From Bacteroidales bacterium (GTDB lineage Bacteria > Bacteroidota > Bacteroidia > Bacteroidales > JAAYJT01): DNA of 64,000 bases. The stretch's first letter is position 1. Each line of letters starts with the position of its first letter. The translations under genes were made by a program, and so were the position numbers. The DNA lies in NCBI GenBank assembly GCA_012522795.1, contig JAAYJT010000070.1, positions 26,983-90,982 of the forward strand, in the 5' to 3' direction. Shown piece by piece: positions 54,878-64,000 of this stretch. The notes below the pieces were generated by a model, which worked only from the letters and a program-made list of their open reading frames with translations, had not been told where the DNA came from and searched no databases.

Positions 54878-55148
54878 TCAAGCAATACTGGTAAGATATG
54901 CCAAAATGATGAAAAACAGATATATCAAAATTCTTCATCATTAAACAATTTTCCATATCCAGCTAACGGTTCATTTACAGAGGATGAACCATATTCCCGT
55001 TTTTTACTTTTAGCTGTTGTTTTTTTTCAATCTTAGCCAGTTTTTTGTTAACTGCTGACAGGTCAACGGGTTCTTTTTATACGGCTGTACTTAAATAGTC
55101 AAGTCTTAAAAAGCCAAATTCGATTTATTTTTTAAAATTAAGAAGATA

Positions 55149-55639
55149 AAAATCAACTTCTTAATTTTATACAGTAAATTAGAAAACTATGAGTAAATTT
55201 TAGTTGGCGAGAAACTCCATTGCAGGTGAAAAGAAAGATGGTCTTTAAATTTGAGCAACATACAACAAGGAAACAGTTGTGCCGGTGTATAAACATCCAT
55301 CGCAGCAACTCTACTACAAGCCAATAAACAGCAAACGTGGGGGCAAACTCAGCACAGAGGAGCTGAAGCTCATGGGATATATCATCAATCCCGGCCTTAA
55401 CTTGACTGACAATGAAAATGTTCAAGAGACTGGAGGAGGTAAACTAATAGAACAGACATACAAAGATGACCACCATCATCGCAAGTCAGCTGCCTGTACC
55501 AAGCTGGTAGGATGTAATTTGAGAAGAAACCATCATAGATGCCAGATTGGACAGATTGGTTAATACTTCACAAAGAATTAAACTAAAAGATGAAAGTTTA
55601 AGAAAAAACTGTAATATTGTCAGCAGAAATATTTTTTAA
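55149..55639 (+). pseudogene. Decayed IS21-family istB-like fragment; left copy of a ~490-bp direct repeat
   Basis: Aligns base-for-base with 63508-64000, roughly 85-90% identical by eye. The translation contains MTTIIASQLPVPSW*DVI*EETIIDARLDRLVNTSQRIKLKDESLRK, i.e. the IstB C-terminal pattern (..SQLPV..W...IGE.TIADAILDRL...S.RI.LKGES.R) broken by stops and a frameshift. Confidence 0.6.
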
Positions 55640-55869
55640 GTTGACCAGAATTCCAATGGGGTCAGTATCGCAAGAATAAACATTTAATCAGATAATTGAA
55701 ATCCATCGTGTTATTAACGAACGTATTATCACGATAATATATGTTAATTTTCTTTATATATCCTTTCAAAGTACTATATTTCGTTTTGTCCTGACACACT
55801 ATAGCTAAATTGATTTCACCATGAAATATTTAAAAAAATTACTTTGTGATTGAATTATTTCATTTACTT

Positions 55870-55894: not shown

Positions 55895-56206
55895 ATGTCA
55901 ACAGATACTATTGGGGAAAAACTCAGACAATTAAGGGAAGAAAAGGAACTTCCTTTACGAAAAGTAGCAGCACAACTGGATATTGATGTGGCAATTTTAA
56001 GTAAAATGGAGCGGGGAATAAGAAAAATAACCAAAGAAATAGTTTTACAATTGGCTGACATTTATGATTATGATGCACATGAACTTCTGGTTTCTTTTCT
56101 GAGTGATAAAATAATGTATGAAATACAAGATGAGGAATTGGGAATGGAAGCATTAAAAGTAGCAGAAGAGAGAGTAAAATATTTAAAATCAAAAGGCGAA
56201 AAATGA
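55895..56206 (+). CDS. XRE-family helix-turn-helix protein, controller (C-protein)-like
   Basis: HTH_3 pattern LRQLREEKELPLRKVAAQLDIDVAILSKMERGIRKI. 103 aa. Its stop overlaps the ATG of the large R-M-S gene (ATGA at 56203-56206). Confidence 0.8.
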   Translation: MSTDTIGEKLRQLREEKELPLRKVAAQLDIDVAILSKMERGIRKITKEIVLQLADIYDYDAHELLVSFLSDKIMYEIQDEELGMEALKVAEERVKYLKSKGEK

Positions 56207-59200
56207 AAGAACAACAAATTATATCAACAATTAAAGCTTTTGGGTTTTCTGCTGACTCAGACAATAAAAAACAGTACTCCAAAACCTATGATAATATTAG
56301 ATATCGGATTTCGGTGGATTTATTAAAAAGCCGGATTGATTTTGGACCGAAAATAAAGAAGGGGGATGACACCACCTCGCATTTGAAAAATCCTGAAAAT
56401 ATCGTTGTTTTAGAATGTGTTAATCGTCTGTTGGAGAAGGGCTATAAACCCGACGATTTAACACTTGAAAAAAAGTGGAAATTAGGACGCACTGCAAAAA
56501 GCGGTAAAGCAGACATTACAATTAAAGGTAAAAACGAAAAAACACTTTTAATTATCGAATGTAAAACCTGGGGAAAGGAATACGAAAGCGAACTCGACAG
56601 GATGAAACAGAATGGCGGACAGCTTTTCTCTTATTTCCAACAAGATAAAAACACACGTTATCTTTGCCTCTATGCCTCGAGAGAGTATGGAGGAAAAATT
56701 GAAAAGGCCAATGCACTAATAAAAGTTGAAGACAGTGCCCAGGAGAAAATTCTTCAACAAGAAACTGAAAAACTGATTACATACGAACAGGCGAAAACCA
56801 TAAAAGAGATGCTTGAAGTATGGAAACACAAAACAAAAGGGAAACAAACTTTTCTTAACACAGGGCTTTTTGAGCCGGAAATTGAACCTTATAATCCGGG
56901 ATACATTCCGATTAAGGTAGCCGATTTAAAAGATTTTGGAGCTGATGATAAAGGAAAGGTATTTAATCAGTTTGAGGAAATTTTGAGACACAACAATATT
57001 TCTGACCGTTCCAATGCTTTTAACAGGATAATTTCATTGATTTTAGCCAAAATCGTTGATGAAAACAAAGGCGAGGATGCCATTACCGACTTTCAGGTAA
57101 AGGAAGGAATTGATGATGCCGAAACATTGCTGGAACGGTTACAATCGCTCTATTCAAAAGCAATGCGCGATTATCTGGATGAAGAAGTAATTGACTATAA
57201 ATTAGAAGATATTGAAGCTCAGATTTCTAATTTTCCGCGACAAACCGCAAAAGAGACACTCTATCGCATTTATAAGGAACTGAAGTTTTATCAGAATAAT
57301 GAATTTGCTTTCAAAGAAGTTTACAACAAAAAACTTTTTGAAGAAAATGCCAAAGTGCTGGAGGAGGTTGTGAGGCTTTTCCAGAAATACCGTTTTAAAT
57401 ACGACCAAAAAGCGCAATTCTTAGGAGATTTCTTTGAATTGATGCTGGAAAGCGGATATAAACAATCAGAAGGTCAGTTTTTTACACCTACGCCTATCAC
57501 AAAATTCATTATTTACTCAATTCCTTTAAAATCAATAGTTCAGGAAAAACTTCAAAAAGGAGAAAAATTCTTTTTACCCAAAGTGGTTGACTTTGCCTGT
57601 GGGAGCGGACATTTCCTTACGGAAGCTATTGAAGAAATTGCCGAATTGATTAAAGAAATAACCGAAGATGACATAAAAGTCATGCCGGATGCGGACAAGT
57701 TAGAGTTTGCTCTGAAAGAGCTGAGAAACTACAAGCATGATATGAGATGGGCAGGCGAATATGTGTTCGGAATTGAAAAGGATTATCGTTTGGCAAGAAC
57801 CAGCCAGGTAGCCTGCTTTATGCATGGCGACGGAGATGCCAATATAATTTTTGGCGACGGGCTTGAAAAGCATGAACGTTTAGGTAAAGATGGTTCTTTT
57901 GATGTACTTGTCGCAAATCCTCCCTACACCATTAAAGATTTCAAAAAACACCTGAATGTAAATCCGCATAATTTCGAGCTTTGGGAGCATGTAACGCCTG
58001 ATTCCGACGACATTGAAGTTTTCTTTATAGAGCGAATGAAACAATTGCTTCGTACGGGTGGAATGGCCGGTATTATTCTTCCAAGTTCCATACTTAGCAA
58101 TTCAGGAGCATATACCAAAGCAAGAGAAATTATTCTCAAATATTTTGAAATAAAGGCAATCGTTGAATTTGGCGGAAATACTTTTGGAGCAACAGGCACT
58201 AACACCGTTACGCTGTTTTTGAAAAAAAGAGATGAAGATTTTGTAACCAATTGCCAATATATTTCCGAAGATTATATTTTTGAAAACAAAACACGCGAAG
58301 GGGATTTTATAAACTCGAAAGAACTTTTTGAAAACTATATAACACATTTGGAATTAGAAGAAGAAGATTATAAAACTTTTATTTCGAGAAAGCCTAATAA
58401 AGAAATTAAAAAGACCGAATTCTACAAAAGTTACAAAAACTGGTTTGATGGCTTAACTGAAGTGAAAAACTTAAAAAAAAGAAAAACTTTCAAAGAGATG
58501 CCGGAAACAGATCAGGAAGAAAAACTCACCTCCATGTTTTTTGACCTGATATTGGAAATTGAAACCGAAAAGTTTTTTTACTTTTTACTCACCCATCGTA
58601 TAGAGGAAGATCCTGAACATTTTGCATGGTATAATGACCAAACAAATGAAGGAGCACCGATAAAAGTAGCCTATCCGCAGCGCAAAGCCATACCACAAAA
58701 AACACTGATTGTAAAAACAGGACGAAGCACCAAAGAACAGGAGAAATTTTTAGGCTACAAATTCAGTAACCGAAGAGGTTACAAAGGAATTGATTTTACA
58801 GGCGAAACTTTAATGTATGATACCGCAAATCAGTTAAATCCACAAAAAGCAAACAGCTATATCTATAAAAATTTCACAAACCAAAAAATAAAAATTGATG
58901 AAGAACTTACCGAAAATCTTTCTTTGGTAAGATTGACCGATTGCATTAATTATGAGGGAATTGATTTTGACAAAAGGATAAATTTAAATGTTGAGTCTAA
59001 AATTGAATATGAAACAATATATGAATTAAAGAGTATCGGGAGTTTACTTAATTTTCAATCAGGATTATGGAAAGGAGAAAACGACCCCCTAATAGATGTT
59101 AAAGTGATAAGGAATACTGAATTTTTACCGGATGGTAAATTAAATTATGAAAATCCAACAGTTATTTCAGTTGAAGCAAAACAATTAGAAAGTCGCAAAT

Positions 59201-60120
59201 TGAAATATGGTGATATTATTTTGGAAAGGAGTGGAGGCAGTGAAACTCAAAACATTGGCAGAGTTGCTTATTTTGAAATTGAAACTAATGAAACTTATTC
59301 TTTTGGTAATTTCACCAGTAGGCTCAGACCTTTTGATAAAAATATAATTATTCCTAAATATGCGATGATACTTTTAAATGACCTCTATCAAAAAGGAGGA
59401 ACTTTAATTTATCAATCTGGTATTCGTATTAAAAACTTAAATCAGAATGCTTATAAATCAGCAAAAATCCCTGTTCCACCAATTGCTGTACAAAAGAAAA
59501 TCATTGAGGAAATAGAAGCTATTGAAAAAAAGGAAATAGAAGCGAAAAAAGTAATTGAAGAAAAAACACATAAGATTGATGAGCTGTTTTCAACTTTTTT
59601 TATTGGCTCTTTCAAAAAGACACTGGAAGAAATTTGCACATTAAAAGCAGGGAAATTTGTTAAAGCAGCTGATATCAAAGATATGCCTGACGATAATTTA
59701 TATCCATGCTATGGAGGTAATGGATTAAGAGGTTATACAGAAACTTTTACTCATGAGGGAACCTTTCCTTTAGTTGGAAGGCAGGGAGCTTTATGCGGAA
59801 ATGTTCATTTAGTAAAAGGAAAGTTTCACGCTACCGAACATGCATTGGTTGCTACTCCAAAAGAAGAAATTAACGTTGTTTGGCTCTATCATCTTTTACG
59901 TACAATGAATTTAAACCAGTATGCTAGAGGAGTTGCACAGCCCGGTTTATCTGTAAAATATCTTAACCCAATTATTATAAGTGTCTTACCGCTCAAACAA
60001 CAAGAAAAAATTGTTGAGGAAATTGAGAAACTTGAAAAAGAAATCTTTAATTTAGAGCAATCTATCACCACTGTTGAAGAAGATAAAAGAGAGGTATTGA
60101 TGAAGTATTTGGAGGAGTAA
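56203..60120 (+). CDS. Single-chain restriction-modification-specificity enzyme (Type IIB/IIG-like): PD-(D/E)XK nuclease + gamma-class N6-adenine methyltransferase + two HsdS-like target recognition domains
   Basis: Nuclease-like motif GKADITI...LLIIECK (D at 56512-56514, E-x-K at 56557-56565). GQFFTPTPI, motif I VVDFACGSGHFL (57583-57618) and motif IV NPPY (57916-57927). Two Methylase_S-like TRDs (~59001-59600 and ~59601-60117), each ending in an IPVPPIAVQKKIIEEIE / LPLKQQEKIVEEIE helix. Confidence 0.8.
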   Translation: MKEQQIISTIKAFGFSADSDNKKQYSKTYDNIRYRISVDLLKSRIDFGPKIKKGDDTTSHLKNPENIVVLECVNRLLEKGYKPDDLTLEKKWKLGRTAKSGKADITIKGKNEKTLLIIECKTWGKEYESELDRMKQNGGQLFSYFQQDKNTRYLCLYASREYGGKIEKANALIKVEDSAQEKILQQETEKLITYEQAKTIKEMLEVWKHKTKGKQTFLNTGLFEPEIEPYNPGYIPIKVADLKDFGADDKGKVFNQFEEILRHNNISDRSNAFNRIISLILAKIVDENKGEDAITDFQVKEGIDDAETLLERLQSLYSKAMRDYLDEEVIDYKLEDIEAQISNFPRQTAKETLYRIYKELKFYQNNEFAFKEVYNKKLFEENAKVLEEVVRLFQKYRFKYDQKAQFLGDFFELMLESGYKQSEGQFFTPTPITKFIIYSIPLKSIVQEKLQKGEKFFLPKVVDFACGSGHFLTEAIEEIAELIKEITEDDIKVMPDADKLEFALKELRNYKHDMRWAGEYVFGIEKDYRLARTSQVACFMHGDGDANIIFGDGLEKHERLGKDGSFDVLVANPPYTIKDFKKHLNVNPHNFELWEHVTPDSDDIEVFFIERMKQLLRTGGMAGIILPSSILSNSGAYTKAREIILKYFEIKAIVEFGGNTFGATGTNTVTLFLKKRDEDFVTNCQYISEDYIFENKTREGDFINSKELFENYITHLELEEEDYKTFISRKPNKEIKKTEFYKSYKNWFDGLTEVKNLKKRKTFKEMPETDQEEKLTSMFFDLILEIETEKFFYFLLTHRIEEDPEHFAWYNDQTNEGAPIKVAYPQRKAIPQKTLIVKTGRSTKEQEKFLGYKFSNRRGYKGIDFTGETLMYDTANQLNPQKANSYIYKNFTNQKIKIDEELTENLSLVRLTDCINYEGIDFDKRINLNVESKIEYETIYELKSIGSLLNFQSGLWKGENDPLIDVKVIRNTEFLPDGKLNYENPTVISVEAKQLESRKLKYGDIILERSGGSETQNIGRVAYFEIETNETYSFGNFTSRLRPFDKNIIIPKYAMILLNDLYQKGGTLIYQSGIRIKNLNQNAYKSAKIPVPPIAVQKKIIEEIEAIEKKEIEAKKVIEEKTHKIDELFSTFFIGSFKKTLEEICTLKAGKFVKAADIKDMPDDNLYPCYGGNGLRGYTETFTHEGTFPLVGRQGALCGNVHLVKGKFHATEHALVATPKEEINVVWLYHLLRTMNLNQYARGVAQPGLSVKYLNPIIISVLPLKQQEKIVEEIEKLEKEIFNLEQSITTVEEDKREVLMKYLEE

Positions 60121-60155: not shown

Positions 60156-61196
60156 ATGGCAAAGAAAATAGACACAAGCACTATCGTAATTGAAAACATT
60201 ATTGTTCATAGTATTCCTAGGCACAGGAAAGGGGATTTTTCTATTAAACCCAAATATAGTGAACAAGAAAGCTCATTACCAGACGGTTTAAGAGTCTTTT
60301 TTAAAGATAAAATAATACAGTCTTTACAGAGTAATAAAGAATTAAGAGTCTGCTATGACACTGAAAGTGTTTCTCCAGTTTCAACATATATTAATCAAAT
60401 TTTAAATACTGATGGTGCTGAATTAGTTAAGCAATCAAAGCTAATGACTAAGTATTTATTTGAAATTCAGGGAGGCCAAAATTCATCAGGAATATTAGTT
60501 GTTATTTTCGGTAAAATTAACAACCAAAACACTTGCATAATTATTAAGCTAGAAAAAGATGAAGGGGCGCAGTTAGAGCTAGATCCTAAAACAAACTCTT
60601 TTAATATTAAAGATGTAAAAAACTTAATGCTTACACGAAGAACTAAAATATATAAGGTTGGATTATTTGTTGACAAGTCAGTTTTCGAAATTAAGTATGA
60701 CGGAAGTACAGCAGATTTACAGATAGATCCTAAAACTAAAAAAGAAGTTACGACTTGGTTTATTGAGAAATTTTTAGGTTGCGTTCCTCTTGCTGACCCA
60801 AGAACTACTACAAAGAAATTTCATGATCTTACAACAACATTTATTCAAAGTATAGAAGATCCTATTAAGAAAGCAAAATACACACAAGACTTAAATTCAT
60901 ATTTACAAAAAAACACTCACAGAATAAGTGCAAAGGAATTTGCAGATGATTATATGGAAACATCAGACAAAGATCTTTACAATAATTATTTAAAAGAAAA
61001 AGAGTTTAGAATGTCTGAGTTTCCCAAGGACAATTATTTCATAGAAAATAAAATAAAAAAATTAACCATGACTTTTGACAATGATATTGCTATTGTTGGA
61101 AACAAGGGGACATTTGATCAAAACGTCAAGTTAGAAAAACAAAAAGATGGCACAACTAAAGCTGAAATAATATCTAAAGTAAAAAGTGTTCGATAA
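60156..61196 (+). CDS. Divergent NdpA/YejK-like (NA37 family) nucleoid-associated protein
   Basis: The N-terminal IIVHSIP motif corresponds to the I..H.L/V start of the family. A central SSGILVVIFG and TWFIEKFLGCVP (family F...FLG motif) are present. The layout parallels the 62186-63235 protein. This is a divergent, unverified call. Confidence 0.55.
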   Translation: MAKKIDTSTIVIENIIVHSIPRHRKGDFSIKPKYSEQESSLPDGLRVFFKDKIIQSLQSNKELRVCYDTESVSPVSTYINQILNTDGAELVKQSKLMTKYLFEIQGGQNSSGILVVIFGKINNQNTCIIIKLEKDEGAQLELDPKTNSFNIKDVKNLMLTRRTKIYKVGLFVDKSVFEIKYDGSTADLQIDPKTKKEVTTWFIEKFLGCVPLADPRTTTKKFHDLTTTFIQSIEDPIKKAKYTQDLNSYLQKNTHRISAKEFADDYMETSDKDLYNNYLKEKEFRMSEFPKDNYFIENKIKKLTMTFDNDIAIVGNKGTFDQNVKLEKQKDGTTKAEIISKVKSVR

Positions 61197-62176
61197 TGAT
61201 AAATGTTCAGAAAATTGTTGATTTATGGAATGAAGAGCAACCTAAATATGAAGAATTAGGAAAAATCGTTTGTGCTTTCATAAAAGATAAAATTACCGAG
61301 TATGAAATATTACCTGAAATTCAATATAGAACAAAGGAGCTCTTAAGCATAATAAAAAAGGTCAAAAAGAAGCAAGATCATAAGGAATATTCCTACCACC
61401 ACCTGAAAGATAAATTAGGCATTAGAATTATCTGTTCTTTTCAAGAGGAATTGGAAATTATTGATAAATTATTGCATGATTTTTTCACAATCATAGAAGC
61501 GGAATATAAGCAAGAGGAGTTAGATTTTGATAAATTAGATTATGTTTCCAATCACTATGATGTCCAAATTAACTTAGACGTTGATGAGTTTGGAAAATAT
61601 ACTAATCTCGGAGCTCTCATTTTTGAGATACAAGTAAGAACATTGAACCAACATGCTTGGTCAAATATGGCGCATTCGTTAGCATATAAACAAGATAAAG
61701 ACTTACCACCAAAGCTAAAACGAAAAGTTTATCGACTACTTTCTTTATATGAATTAGCTGACGATGAATTTTCAAGTGTAAATAAAGCCTTAAAGGAATA
61801 TAAAGACAATCACTCTTTTACTCTTTTGAAAAAACTTGAAGGGAAATTTTATAAGTATGCCAAAATTGATTTTGACAGAGAAATCACTTTGTATACCATT
61901 GATATCCTTTTAAGCTATTACGAAAATGAGGATAGTGTTAATCAAATTATCTGTAAAATTGGCAATTTTATAACTAACAATGAACAAAAAATAAAAAGAA
62001 TATACGATGAAAACAGAAACCGTTTTTACGCAATACTATTTTTAACACAACCTGAAATTTTTATTATTTGGTTTATGCTCCAAAACAATCCATTTACATT
62101 AGAAGATAATTGGGCAAATGATTTTGAAGAAGAAGACCTAGAACAAATTAAAACCCTTTGGGGAAATGACTTATAA
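61196..62176 (+). CDS. RelA/SpoT-domain (small alarmone synthetase / toxSAS-like) nucleotidyltransferase with ~150-aa uncharacterised C-terminal region
   Basis: All synthetase motifs are present: RTKELLS (R45xKxxxS, from nt 61328), DKLGIRI (61409-61426), DYVSNHY, EIQVRT (61625-61642) and HAWSNMAHSLAYK. The start overlaps the upstream stop (TAATG at 61194-61198). Confidence 0.8.
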   Translation: MINVQKIVDLWNEEQPKYEELGKIVCAFIKDKITEYEILPEIQYRTKELLSIIKKVKKKQDHKEYSYHHLKDKLGIRIICSFQEELEIIDKLLHDFFTIIEAEYKQEELDFDKLDYVSNHYDVQINLDVDEFGKYTNLGALIFEIQVRTLNQHAWSNMAHSLAYKQDKDLPPKLKRKVYRLLSLYELADDEFSSVNKALKEYKDNHSFTLLKKLEGKFYKYAKIDFDREITLYTIDILLSYYENEDSVNQIICKIGNFITNNEQKIKRIYDENRNRFYAILFLTQPEIFIIWFMLQNNPFTLEDNWANDFEEEDLEQIKTLWGNDL

Positions 62177-62185
62177 TTTTAAAAT

Positions 62186-63235
62186 ATGTTAGACCTTACA
62201 AATTGTAATATACTTGATCTGATTGCCCACCAAGTTGGCAATCAGACGAATGATGAAGAATTGATATTGTCAGCTTCATTATTGAATACAGAAGACTCTC
62301 ATCTGAGAGAACTCTTGGTTAAGTATTTTCTTTATCCTTTCGAAAATATGCAAGAGTTTTATTCATTTACATTTTCAGATGAAGACTTCACATTAAACCC
62401 CCTTTATCAATATGCGACTAGTATCTTTTCAGAAAAAGATAACTTCAAAATGAAAAGTGAGAGTATTGCAAAACATCTTTATAAAATAGCTTTACACCCT
62501 AAAATAAAATCGGGAGATTTATTTGTAGTAACTCTTGAAAATATAAGTTTAGATGGAGAAATGGTAAACGCTTTAGGCTTTTTTAAATCTGAAAATAGAC
62601 AAGATTTTTTAAAATTGAATAAGATCTCAAAAGAGTTCTCGCTAAAATATGATAAAGGAATCAATATTGAAAAATTAGACAAAGGTTGTTTGATATTCAA
62701 TACTGAAAGAGAGAATGGTTATATATTATCTGTTGTTGACAACACAAACAAAGGAAATGAAGCACAATATTGGATGAATGATTTTTTGGGTGTAAAACCT
62801 ATTAACAACGAATATCATCAAACCAATCAATTTTTGGGTATTACAAAACAGTTTGTAACAAAGCAGTTAGACAACGAATTTGAAATTAATAAAGCTGATA
62901 AAATAGATTTGCTTAATCGTTCAGTTGATTATTTTAAAAAGCATGATCAGTTTGACAAGGAAGAATTTGAAGCAGAAGTTTTTAACGATTCAAATTTAAT
63001 AGAATCATTCCGTCAGTTCGATAAGATTTATAGAAATGAAAATGAAATTGAATTGGATGACAACTTTGTGATTTCCGCACCTGCAGTAAAAAAACAAGCC
63101 CGGGCTTTCAAAAGTGTTCTGAAACTGGATAAAAACTTTCATATTTATATCCACGGCAACCGGGATTTAATAGAACAGGGAGTTGACAAAGACGGACGAA
63201 AATATTATAAAATTTATTACGAAGAGGAAACTTAA
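62186..63235 (+). CDS. NdpA/YejK-family nucleoid-associated protein (Bacteroidota type)
   Basis: ILDLIAHQVGN N-terminus, SGDLFVVTLE, LDKGCLIFNTERENGY, and YWMNDFLGVKP (F..FLG family motif). 349 aa. It starts 9 nt after the RelA/SpoT-like gene. Confidence 0.75.
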   Translation: MLDLTNCNILDLIAHQVGNQTNDEELILSASLLNTEDSHLRELLVKYFLYPFENMQEFYSFTFSDEDFTLNPLYQYATSIFSEKDNFKMKSESIAKHLYKIALHPKIKSGDLFVVTLENISLDGEMVNALGFFKSENRQDFLKLNKISKEFSLKYDKGINIEKLDKGCLIFNTERENGYILSVVDNTNKGNEAQYWMNDFLGVKPINNEYHQTNQFLGITKQFVTKQLDNEFEINKADKIDLLNRSVDYFKKHDQFDKEEFEAEVFNDSNLIESFRQFDKIYRNENEIELDDNFVISAPAVKKQARAFKSVLKLDKNFHIYIHGNRDLIEQGVDKDGRKYYKIYYEEET

Positions 63236-63507
63236 AATATGTTATATTGACATGGAGTCAGAATTAGACTTTTGACATTCAAACAAAAGTTTGATTGTTG
63301 AGAACAAACAAGTCAATGACTCCAAAAATAGCGGACCGGTAGGATGAAGATAGAAATCTGACTATCTTATTATAGATGCAGGTTACCGAGAGGATATATT
63401 TTATTCATTATCTATTTGGAGTTAAGTGCAACAGCAGTTAACATAATATAGATATTATCGCCTGCTACTCCTTTGTAAAAATTATCCTAATCCCTTAATT
63501 CCTCGGA

Positions 63508-64000
63508 CAAAAATCAATTTCTTATTTTTGTACAGTAAATTAGAATACTATGAGTAAATTTTAGTTGGTGCGAAACTCCGTTGTAGGTGAAAAGAGAGAT
63601 TATCTTTGAATTTGAGCAGCATACAACCAGGAAACAGTTGTGCCGGTGCTTAAACAACCACCGCAACAGCTCTATTACAAGCCAAAATACGACAAACGTG
63701 GGTGCAAACTCAGCACAGAGGAGCCGAAAATCATGGGATATATCATCAATCCCGGCCTTAACCTAACTGACAATGAAAATGTTCAAGAGACTGGAGGGAG
63801 TAAACCAATATAACCGATATACAAATATGACCATCATCATAGCAAGTCAACTGTCTGTAGCAAGCTGTTATGATGTAATTTTAGAGGTAACTATCGCAGC
63901 TGCCATATTAGATAGATTGGTTAATACTTCACACAGAATCAAACTAAAAGATGGAAGTTTAAGAAAAAACTGTAATATTGTCAGCAGAAATATTTTTTAA
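63508..64000 (+). pseudogene. Decayed IS21-family istB-like fragment; right copy of the direct repeat (runs off the window end)
   Basis: Aligns with 55149-55639. The translation MTIIIASQLSVASCYDVILEVTIAAAILDRLVNTSHRIKLKDGSLRK retains the IstB C-terminal pattern. Upstream frames are broken differently from the left copy. Confidence 0.6.

Follow-up and report, generated by a model that had tools for sequence, protein, structure and literature searches.

The closest described counterparts of the genes analysed here are the type I PANGU systems, reported by Li et al. in April 2026 (bioRxiv 10.64898/2026.04.06.716658), which pair a YejK-like nucleoid-associated protein (NAP), Pag1A, with Pag1B, a toxSAS (toxic small alarmone synthetase) of the GRel subfamily. 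In that work, carried out on the systems of Ferrimonas futtsuensis and Pseudomonas aeruginosa, the acidic, "DNA-mimicking" C-terminal domain of Pag1B (the DMK domain) was found to bind a Pag1A dimer asymmetrically, giving a 2:1 Pag1A:Pag1B complex by cryo-EM with a KD of 9.4 nM. Pag1B by itself is an inactive tetramer; once in the complex it converts ATP and GTP to pppGpp, and tRNA is not labelled. Pag1A normally resides on long DNA and is freed when phage nucleases degrade the chromosome; a pair in which Pag1A is defective in DNA binding is toxic. Pag1A alone, Pag1B alone and the intact pair are all non-toxic, with Pag1A acting as an activator, and the isolated synthetase domain of Pag1B is inactive, so that the C-terminal domain is not an antitoxin. 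By the account of the same authors, all toxSAS enzymes studied before PANGU were toxins of toxin-antitoxin (TA) systems. Type I systems occur in more than five phyla, with sporadic cases in Bacteroidota, and a SLATT gene is present in some of their operons; PANGU is defined as bicistronic, and a second NAP is never mentioned (bioRxiv 10.64898/2026.04.06.716658). Here we compare with these systems three genes at 60156-63235 on the forward strand of a 64,000-nt stretch of a Bacteroidales contig, JAAYJT010000070.1 (hereafter the window). We consider it likely that together they make up an abortive-infection module gated by a nucleoid protein and of the type I PANGU kind, with a small alarmone synthetase as the effector.

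Two other kinds of synthetase bear on the comparison. RelQ (SAS1, YjbM) is a housekeeping enzyme, a homotetramer that makes (p)ppGpp and is under the control of pppGpp and RNA rather than of a NAP. In CapRel(SJ46) (PDB 7ZTB), a toxSAS fused to an antitoxin that senses phage, a C-terminal domain reportedly autoinhibits the enzyme in cis and binds a phage capsid protein, and CapRel is said to pyrophosphorylate tRNA.

The alarmone synthetase and its nucleoid-protein partner

The proposed Pag1B-type effector gene occupies 61196-62176 (+ strand), starts with ATG and encodes a small alarmone synthetase of 326 amino acids (aa) with an extra C-terminal domain. RelA_SpoT was the sole domain detected in the Pfam scan (aa 45-168, E=1.8e-18, with 67.3 bits where the cut-off is 27); HD, TGS and ACT domains were not found in it. 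The protein therefore lacks the HD, TGS and ACT/RRM domains that mark the long RelA/SpoT homologues (RSH; Rel, RelA and SpoT), and it scored 19.7 bits against a cut-off of 499 with the NCBIfam long-RSH model TIGR00691. From the Pfam match, the RelQ matches and the invariant motif residues, aa 1-171 (61196-61708, +) were assigned to the synthetase (SYNTH) domain. Its motifs R45-x-K47-xxx-S51 (61328-61348), D72-xx-G75-x-R77 (61409-61426), D115-Y116-V-S118-N-H120-Y121, E144-I-Q-V-R-T149 (61625-61642) and H153-x-W155-xxxx-H160-xxx-Y164-K165 are intact, and their residues do not vary in an alignment of 27 homologues that are 55-85% identical to the window protein. In a PDB sequence search, the family profile aligned with Bacillus subtilis RelQ/SAS1 over aa 42-203 (E=4e-15), and R45/K47/S51, D72/G75/R77, Y116/S118/H120 and E144-T149 fall on the RelQ catalytic motifs. 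Because the motifs are invariant and aligned with those of RelQ, the synthetase looks catalytically competent. To this extent a first-pass annotation made from the letters of the window is borne out: it had described a RelA/SpoT protein at these positions with intact motifs, predicted to be active, and devoid of HD, TGS and ACT domains.

The same PDB search returned the catalytic domains of RelQ, RelP and Rel and nothing else; aa 204-326 were unmatched in it, and a PANGU entry was absent from its matches. The best sequence and fold matches of the synthetase domain were the RelQ/SAS1 entries 5dec, 5ded and 5f2v. All Foldseek matches of the full-length model were to synthetase domains, and a CapRel chain was absent among the 50 PDB matches listed. 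By sequence and fold, the closest solved relative is RelQ, a tetramer that makes (p)ppGpp, and not one of the toxSAS enzymes that modify tRNA. The window protein has the catalytic fold and all motifs in common with RelQ and RelP (SAS2) over aa 42-203, including the last helix, and the RelQ homotetramer parallels the inactive tetramer reported for Pag1B. Unlike the window protein, RelQ ends where the extra domain starts, and the score of the window protein with the NCBIfam YjbM (RelQ) equivalog NF053588, 61.6 bits, is far under the cut-off of 320. Housekeeping small alarmone synthetases are single-domain proteins of about 210-230 aa that score above this cut-off, and the window synthetase is of another form.

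The equivalent of the last RelQ helix is a long linker helix at aa 172-203 (RKVYRLLSLYELADDEF...; 61709-61804, +). It is followed by an acidic, all-alpha domain of eight helices (aa 204-326; 61805-62173, +), the proposed NAP-docking domain, termed DMK in the PANGU preprint. The first-pass annotation had set apart an unassigned region of about 150 aa, and had named the helical extension of housekeeping synthetases as the explanation that would refute this. Since the RelQ alignment runs to aa 203, the additional part is the 123 aa from 204 to 326; about 30 residues of the region are the RelQ-type last helix, and the housekeeping explanation holds for aa 172-203 but fails for the remainder. A full-length AlphaFold2 model built from the 27-sequence alignment (mean pLDDT 81, pTM 0.48) comprises the synthetase fold (aa 1-170), a single long helix (172-201) and a C-terminal helical bundle (206-322). 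The helix has low pLDDT values of about 50-54; low confidence at 151-200 and the uncertain orientation of the domains are compatible with an arrangement that depends on an oligomer or a partner, and prove nothing. Structure prediction of residues 200-326 alone gave a compact eight-helix domain with pLDDT 92.3 and pTM 0.87.

The C-terminal domain of the window protein has a net charge of -9, a pI of 4.5 and an EEED cluster near its end, and each of the 27 homologues likewise has an acidic one (pI 4.3-5.5). Residues E215, K217, D225, D227, F258, R276, Q285-P286-E287, W292, D304, W306 and W322 are invariant in the 27-homologue alignment. The earlier statement that this region matches nothing nameable still stands: it had no match in Pfam, NCBIfam or the PDB sequences, and Foldseek found no fold match in the PDB (best E 6.6) or among the viral predicted structures of BFVD (best E 4.5). 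Searching 1.84 billion representative proteins with a profile of the domain gave 290 clusters at E<=1e-3. Among the 150 of these clusters that were listed, each near-full-length protein is 299-342 aa long and carries the domain at about 200-325, and the shorter matches look like gene fragments. Because the near-full-length matches in these 150 have a single architecture, the domain is known only as the tail of this synthetase.

The gene upstream, here called NAPup (60156-61196, +), encodes a 346-aa NA37/YejK-like nucleoid-associated protein (Pfam NA37, E=5.8e-20), which we regard as the candidate Pag1A-type partner. Its TAA stop and the synthetase ATG share one base (TAATG), and in all 26 related loci with upstream sequence it immediately precedes the synthetase gene; the partnership is obligatory for the synthetase. 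Judged by analogy, this neighbouring NAP most likely docks on the acidic C-terminal domain. The first-pass annotation had offered docking of the neighbouring NdpA-like proteins as one possible role for the region, which fits both the constant adjacency of NAPup and the binding of a NAP dimer by the domain of the studied relatives. NAPup is basic (net +8, pI 9.0), as it mostly is within the window family. Overall charge was nevertheless dropped as a proxy for DNA binding, since the synthetase-linked NAPs of other phyla are neutral to acidic. A conserved K-x-K-K cluster stands at aa 192-197 of NAPup (60729-60746), just ahead of a shared FLG motif; the DNA contacts of Pag1A were mapped to K200, R203 and K204 (bioRxiv 10.64898/2026.04.06.716658).

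In each feature tested, the NAPup-synthetase pair fits the description of type I PANGU. The NA37 gene is directly upstream and in one operon with the effector, well inside the spacing of <40 bp used to recognise the systems. The synthetase, of about 330 aa, is likewise built from a SYNTH domain at the N-terminus, a helical linker and, at the C-terminus, an acidic domain of helices, and it keeps the catalytic G-loop tyrosine (Y116 in the window protein, Y129 in Pag1B). Like type I PANGU, the pair is linked to known defence genes, in the window a Type IIG restriction-modification (RM) gene 35 nt upstream, and NAPup belongs to the lineage that partners such synthetases in Gamma- and Alphaproteobacteria, Bacillota and Actinomycetota. 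The window synthetase differs in belonging to a Bacteroidota family, and its C-terminal-domain sequence is highly diverged from the proteobacterial ones.

At E<=1e-3 the synthetase has 318 homologues; among the 120 listed, almost every one is a full-length protein of 322-330 aa. A species scan (one genome per species, 185,579 genomes) gave 29 synthetase loci of patchy distribution, almost all in Bacteroidota and one in Azovibrio. Relatives of the module were not found in IMG/VR viral contigs, and the module is therefore not evidently phage-borne. One homologue, in Neisseria gonorrhoeae (NZ_CP119142.1), was matched in two pieces with no annotated gene and may be a pseudogene; the sequence is listed as a plasmid, but its size of 2.17 Mb suggests a mislabelled chromosome.

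Outside this family, pairs consisting of a NAP gene followed by a synthetase gene are carried on plasmids of Ochrobactrum (Alphaproteobacteria), Streptomyces (Actinomycetota), Klebsiella pneumoniae (Gammaproteobacteria) and Clostridium botulinum (Bacillota); the two genes overlap and the synthetases are 322-332 aa long. A hidden Markov model (HMM) of the full-length window-family synthetase matched the four plasmid synthetases nearly end to end, with E-values of 1e-21 to 4e-28. The NAPup HMM matched their NAPs at 1e-36 to 1e-51. NAPup is thus orthologous to the NAPs next to these synthetases in four further phyla or classes, and its orthologues accompany equivalent synthetases in at least five phyla. 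Profile-profile comparison of the window synthetase family with a large alphaproteobacterial family gave a probability of 99.4% over residues 1-323. The latter family is 38.7% identical to the Klebsiella synthetase, and only alphaproteobacterial-type relatives were among the best 120 homologues of the Ochrobactrum protein. The QPE and W...WG motifs are kept in the Streptomyces C-terminal domain. By these comparisons, NAPup and the synthetase are the form taken in Bacteroidota by a NAP-synthetase pair that is found across phyla and whose C-terminal domain evolves fast. In the Klebsiella operon (L113, IncFIB plasmid NZ_CP092398.1) a DUF4231 gene precedes the NAP gene and a DEAD-box helicase gene adjoins; we take DUF4231 to be SLATT-related. 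The Clostridium pair (L114) lies on the C/D plasmid CM003332.1. Both pairs, from species of clinical or veterinary relevance, are annotated as a NAP plus a RelA/SpoT protein, and they are probably type I PANGU systems that have not been annotated as such.

A second nucleoid-protein gene

The third gene, NAPdn (62186-63235, +), lies 9 nt past the synthetase stop and encodes a second NA37/YejK-like protein, of 349 aa (Pfam NA37, E=5.6e-37). It is acidic (net -17, pI 5.0), and consistently so (pI 4.9-6.4). BLASTP gave no match between NAPdn and NAPup (E 0.32), and hhalign aligned their profiles with 96.4% probability at about 20% identity. NAPdn thus belongs to an NA37 lineage other than that of NAPup, with homology at the profile level only. 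The NAPdn HMM, moreover, matched the four plasmid NAPs only at 3e-9 to 0.06. Where NAPup carries K-x-K-K, NAPdn has N-K-x-x-E-A (aa 186-192). As single queries against the PDB sequences, neither NAPup nor NAPdn gave a match.

NAPdn is directly downstream of the synthetase in 19 of 27 loci, always overlapping it or within 9 nt of its stop. The eight loci that lack it are from three Flavobacterium, Pedobacter, Aequorivita, Maribacter, Aquimarina and Azovibrio. On a rough neighbour-joining tree of the synthetases, two-gene forms stand at the base and are also nested within a mostly three-gene crown. Two positions of the C-terminal domain differ between the forms: N273 is present in 94% of three-gene loci and N305 in 100%, and both are variable in two-gene loci. 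This is a weak lead, as the sample is small and confounded by phylogeny. The three two-gene Flavobacterium loci (L008, L009 and L010; 3000-4950) have two conserved genes just upstream of NAPup instead of NAPdn. The first encodes a protein of about 176 aa without a Pfam match, whose hydrophobic N-terminal stretches suggest a membrane protein, and the second a P-loop protein of about 462 aa; the two may be alternative accessory components. In a Chitinophagales locus (L002, 8183-9259) a third NA37 gene, encoding 358 aa with 40% identity to NAPdn, directly follows NAPdn.

A metagenome search with NAPdn returned 80 loci. In 52 of the 55 with enough upstream sequence, synthetase and NAPup were absent. 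Some of the NAPdn-type genes have no close same-strand neighbour; others lie directly downstream of a DUF3732 protein (L055) or of a conserved family without a Pfam match. Members of this family range from roughly 200 to 900 aa, and the long forms begin MGGxxGxRGYxxQTI. The loci in which a NAPdn-type gene follows other conserved genes (L055, L060, L091, L096, L046, L053 and L078) look like further NAP-linked defence operons. DUF3732 also defines cluster 7 of the PANGU-like clusters 2-10 in the preprint, and here too a gene of the NAPdn lineage is directly downstream of it. Because it is found after DUF3732 and other conserved genes, the NAPdn lineage behaves like the modular NAP core of PANGU-like operons. 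The window differs from those clusters in that the gene before the NAPdn-lineage one is a synthetase already provided with a dedicated NAP. On a neighbour-joining tree the module-linked NAPdn copies are interspersed with other copies, and NAPdn thus belongs to a promiscuous NAP lineage that has become joined to the NAPup-synthetase pair.

The same observations can be read in another way, in which NAPdn does not belong to the system: a resident gene for a nucleoid protein, it would anchor a hotspot, with defence cassettes of the NAPup-synthetase type inserting repeatedly just upstream of it. The many metagenome loci without a synthetase, the varied upstream neighbours and the interspersed copies on the tree all agree with this. 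Against it stands a distance of at most 9 nt, or an overlap, between synthetase stop and NAPdn start in 19 of 19 loci, whose synthetases are 50-85% identical. The NAPdn of the window lies inside an island bracketed by insertion-sequence (IS) remnants, with a GC content of 29-30% like that of the module, against 38% outside, and the groupings of NAPdn in the crown follow those of the synthetase tree. We therefore regard a resident anchor gene as doubtful, although it is the alternative that best withstands the data.

The tight coupling in 19 of 19 loci, the common low GC content and the place inside the IS-bracketed island argue instead that NAPdn works within the module and is not a bystander: a third component, integral to it though facultative. 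What it would do there is conjecture; our preference is that it might fill one of two unequal places in a NAP:NAP:effector complex, or be a second sensor or a setter of the threshold. That NAPdn is a dedicated third subunit, either forming with NAPup a heterodimeric clamp on the C-terminal domain or serving as a second sensor or threshold buffer, is a tentative proposal that may well prove wrong. A heterodimeric clamp would, by analogy with the published 2:1 complex, possibly amount to a genetic subfunctionalisation of the unequal NAP positions in it.

Proposed mechanism and alternatives

The mechanism that we propose for the module is carried over from the preprint. In the uninfected cell NAPup would be kept on long chromosomal DNA and the synthetase would be held in an inactive oligomer. 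Degradation of the chromosome by a phage would free NAPup, and the freed dimer would clamp aa 204-326 of the synthetase. The oligomer would then dissociate, and the synthetase would transfer pyrophosphate from ATP to GTP, GDP or GMP. Depletion of nucleotides and a flood of (pp)pGpp would abort the infection.

Several points weigh against assigning the module to type I PANGU. Three genes are present in the window and in 19 of 27 loci, rather than the two of the published systems, and eight loci are bicistronic. The Pag1B residue pattern (Y129, R258, E272, R279, R306, H314, E337) was matched by no protein that we retrieved, so that membership would follow from architecture and a chain of homology rather than from direct comparison with the tested Pag1A and Pag1B. 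Judged from proteobacterial relatives, the tested proteins are probably about 20-25% identical to the window protein. The C-terminal domain taken alone aligned with its alphaproteobacterial counterpart in the same register but at a marginal 41% hhalign probability (E 2.7e-4), and it matched the Klebsiella and Clostridium counterparts weakly. For a DNA mimic, its net charge across the family is modest, at -2 to -13 per 123 aa. PADLOC 2023 gave the synthetase only a weak match to the candidate system PDC-S33, over the synthetase domain, and the product and substrate are not readable from its sequence. Finally, the mechanism comes from one unreviewed preprint (bioRxiv 10.64898/2026.04.06.716658).

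An alternative is that the locus is a toxin-antitoxin system, with a constitutively toxic toxSAS held in check by one or both NA37 proteins, more likely the acidic NAPdn, until a phage relieves the inhibition. Genes that overlap or follow closely on one another are the rule in type II TA operons, the toxSAS enzymes characterised before PANGU were all of this type according to the preprint, and an acidic, facultative NAPdn is what one would expect of an accessory regulator. In the studied relatives, however, each gene and the pair are non-toxic and the NAP activates the enzyme. NAPdn is absent from eight related loci and so is not an obligatory antitoxin. To our knowledge, NA37 is not among the antitoxin domains that partner toxSAS enzymes, which also counts against a TA system, and we judge this explanation improbable.

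The first-pass annotation had also suggested that the C-terminal region could be an autoinhibitor and phage sensor as in CapRel. On that model the domain would inhibit the synthetase in cis until displaced by a phage protein, and the NA37 genes would be neighbours without any connection to it. The comparison suggests itself for a toxSAS that has two fused domains and lies in a defence island, and the uncertain inter-domain orientation of the model (pTM 0.48) is compatible with a mobile regulatory domain. The suggestion nevertheless fared badly. The fold of the window domain is unrelated, in that Foldseek found no match for it in the PDB, which should include 7ZTB. Whereas CapRel(SJ46) is a stand-alone single gene, the window synthetase has an obligatory NAP partner, and adjacency in 26 of 26 loci with a start/stop overlap is unlike that of unrelated neighbours. 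The isolated synthetase domain of the studied relative is inactive, and the PANGU relatives make pppGpp without labelling tRNA (bioRxiv 10.64898/2026.04.06.716658). A self-contained sensor of the CapRel type is accordingly very improbable. It is scarcely credible that the protein is a housekeeping RelQ- or RelP-type synthetase that acts in the stringent response and carries a helical extension specific to its lineage: RelQ and RelP are its best sequence and fold matches and residues 172-203 are a RelQ-type helix, but the equivalog score falls far short, an extra 123-aa domain is present, the gene occurs patchily in 29 loci among the 185,579 species genomes, and it sits beside a restriction enzyme in a low-GC, IS-flanked island.

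Genomic setting and significance

The three genes are the last of five that run head to tail on the + strand: a regulator gene, the Type IIG RM gene, NAPup, the synthetase gene and NAPdn. The first, at 55895-56206 (+), encodes a helix-turn-helix (HTH) regulator of the XRE/C-protein-like kind (Pfam HTH_3, E=3e-10; PADLOC Control_protein matches) and overlaps the start of the RM gene. The latter (56203-60120, +) encodes a Type IIG restriction-modification fusion of 1305 aa (PADLOC REase_MTase_IIG, E=5.6e-264; Pfam N6_Mtase, Methylase_S and Eco57I), a single chain with an HSDR_N-like nuclease N-terminus, an N6-methylase and two specificity domains. Because this gene ends 35 nt before NAPup, all five genes may form one transcript. 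Scans for sigma-70 promoters and intrinsic terminators gave no excess over shuffled sequence, both models being unsuited to Bacteroidota. In the closest relative (L001, synthetase 84% identical) the upstream RM gene is absent, and the NAP-synthetase module thus moves independently of the Type IIG gene. Defence genes found near other relatives of the module include a type I R subunit and an AbiC-like gene.

Direct repeats (family D1) bracket the genes in an island of 8.4 kb. Both copies are decayed 3' remnants of IS21-type istB genes. The left copy (55145-55640) has in-frame stops, and the right copy (63506-64000) runs to the end of the window and matches the C-terminus of Pfam IstB_IS21 at 63773-63997 (E=3.8e-08). 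The repeat finder reported 300 nt at 89% identity; by eye the similarity extends over about 500 nt, up to about 55640 and 64000. A further 39-nt repeat, D2 (58947 and 61852; 72% identity), was rejected as it looks like a chance match. The GC content of NAPup, the synthetase gene and NAPdn is 28.7-29.8% (29.8% for NAPdn), against 38.2% in the first 55 kb of the window, and that of the whole island is 31.9%. The low GC content and the IS21 remnants on both sides mark the island as horizontally acquired.

The core of the locus probably belongs with the systems reported earlier in 2026, and the three-gene form, with its second NAP lineage, is an undescribed variant. The C-terminal domain gains a likely role that can be put to the test: a nucleoid protein would use it as the handle for turning on an alarmone synthetase. 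With 318 homologues and 290 domain clusters as relatives, the family would extend the sensing of infection through loss of chromosomal DNA into Bacteroidota. The conserved second NAP gene offers a natural experiment on the assembly and tuning of an asymmetric NAP:NAP:effector complex, and could show whether effectors exchange their NAP sensors. If NAPdn is a dedicated subunit, it would be a shared, exchangeable sensing subunit of several defence systems, since its lineage also pairs with other effectors such as the DUF3732 proteins.

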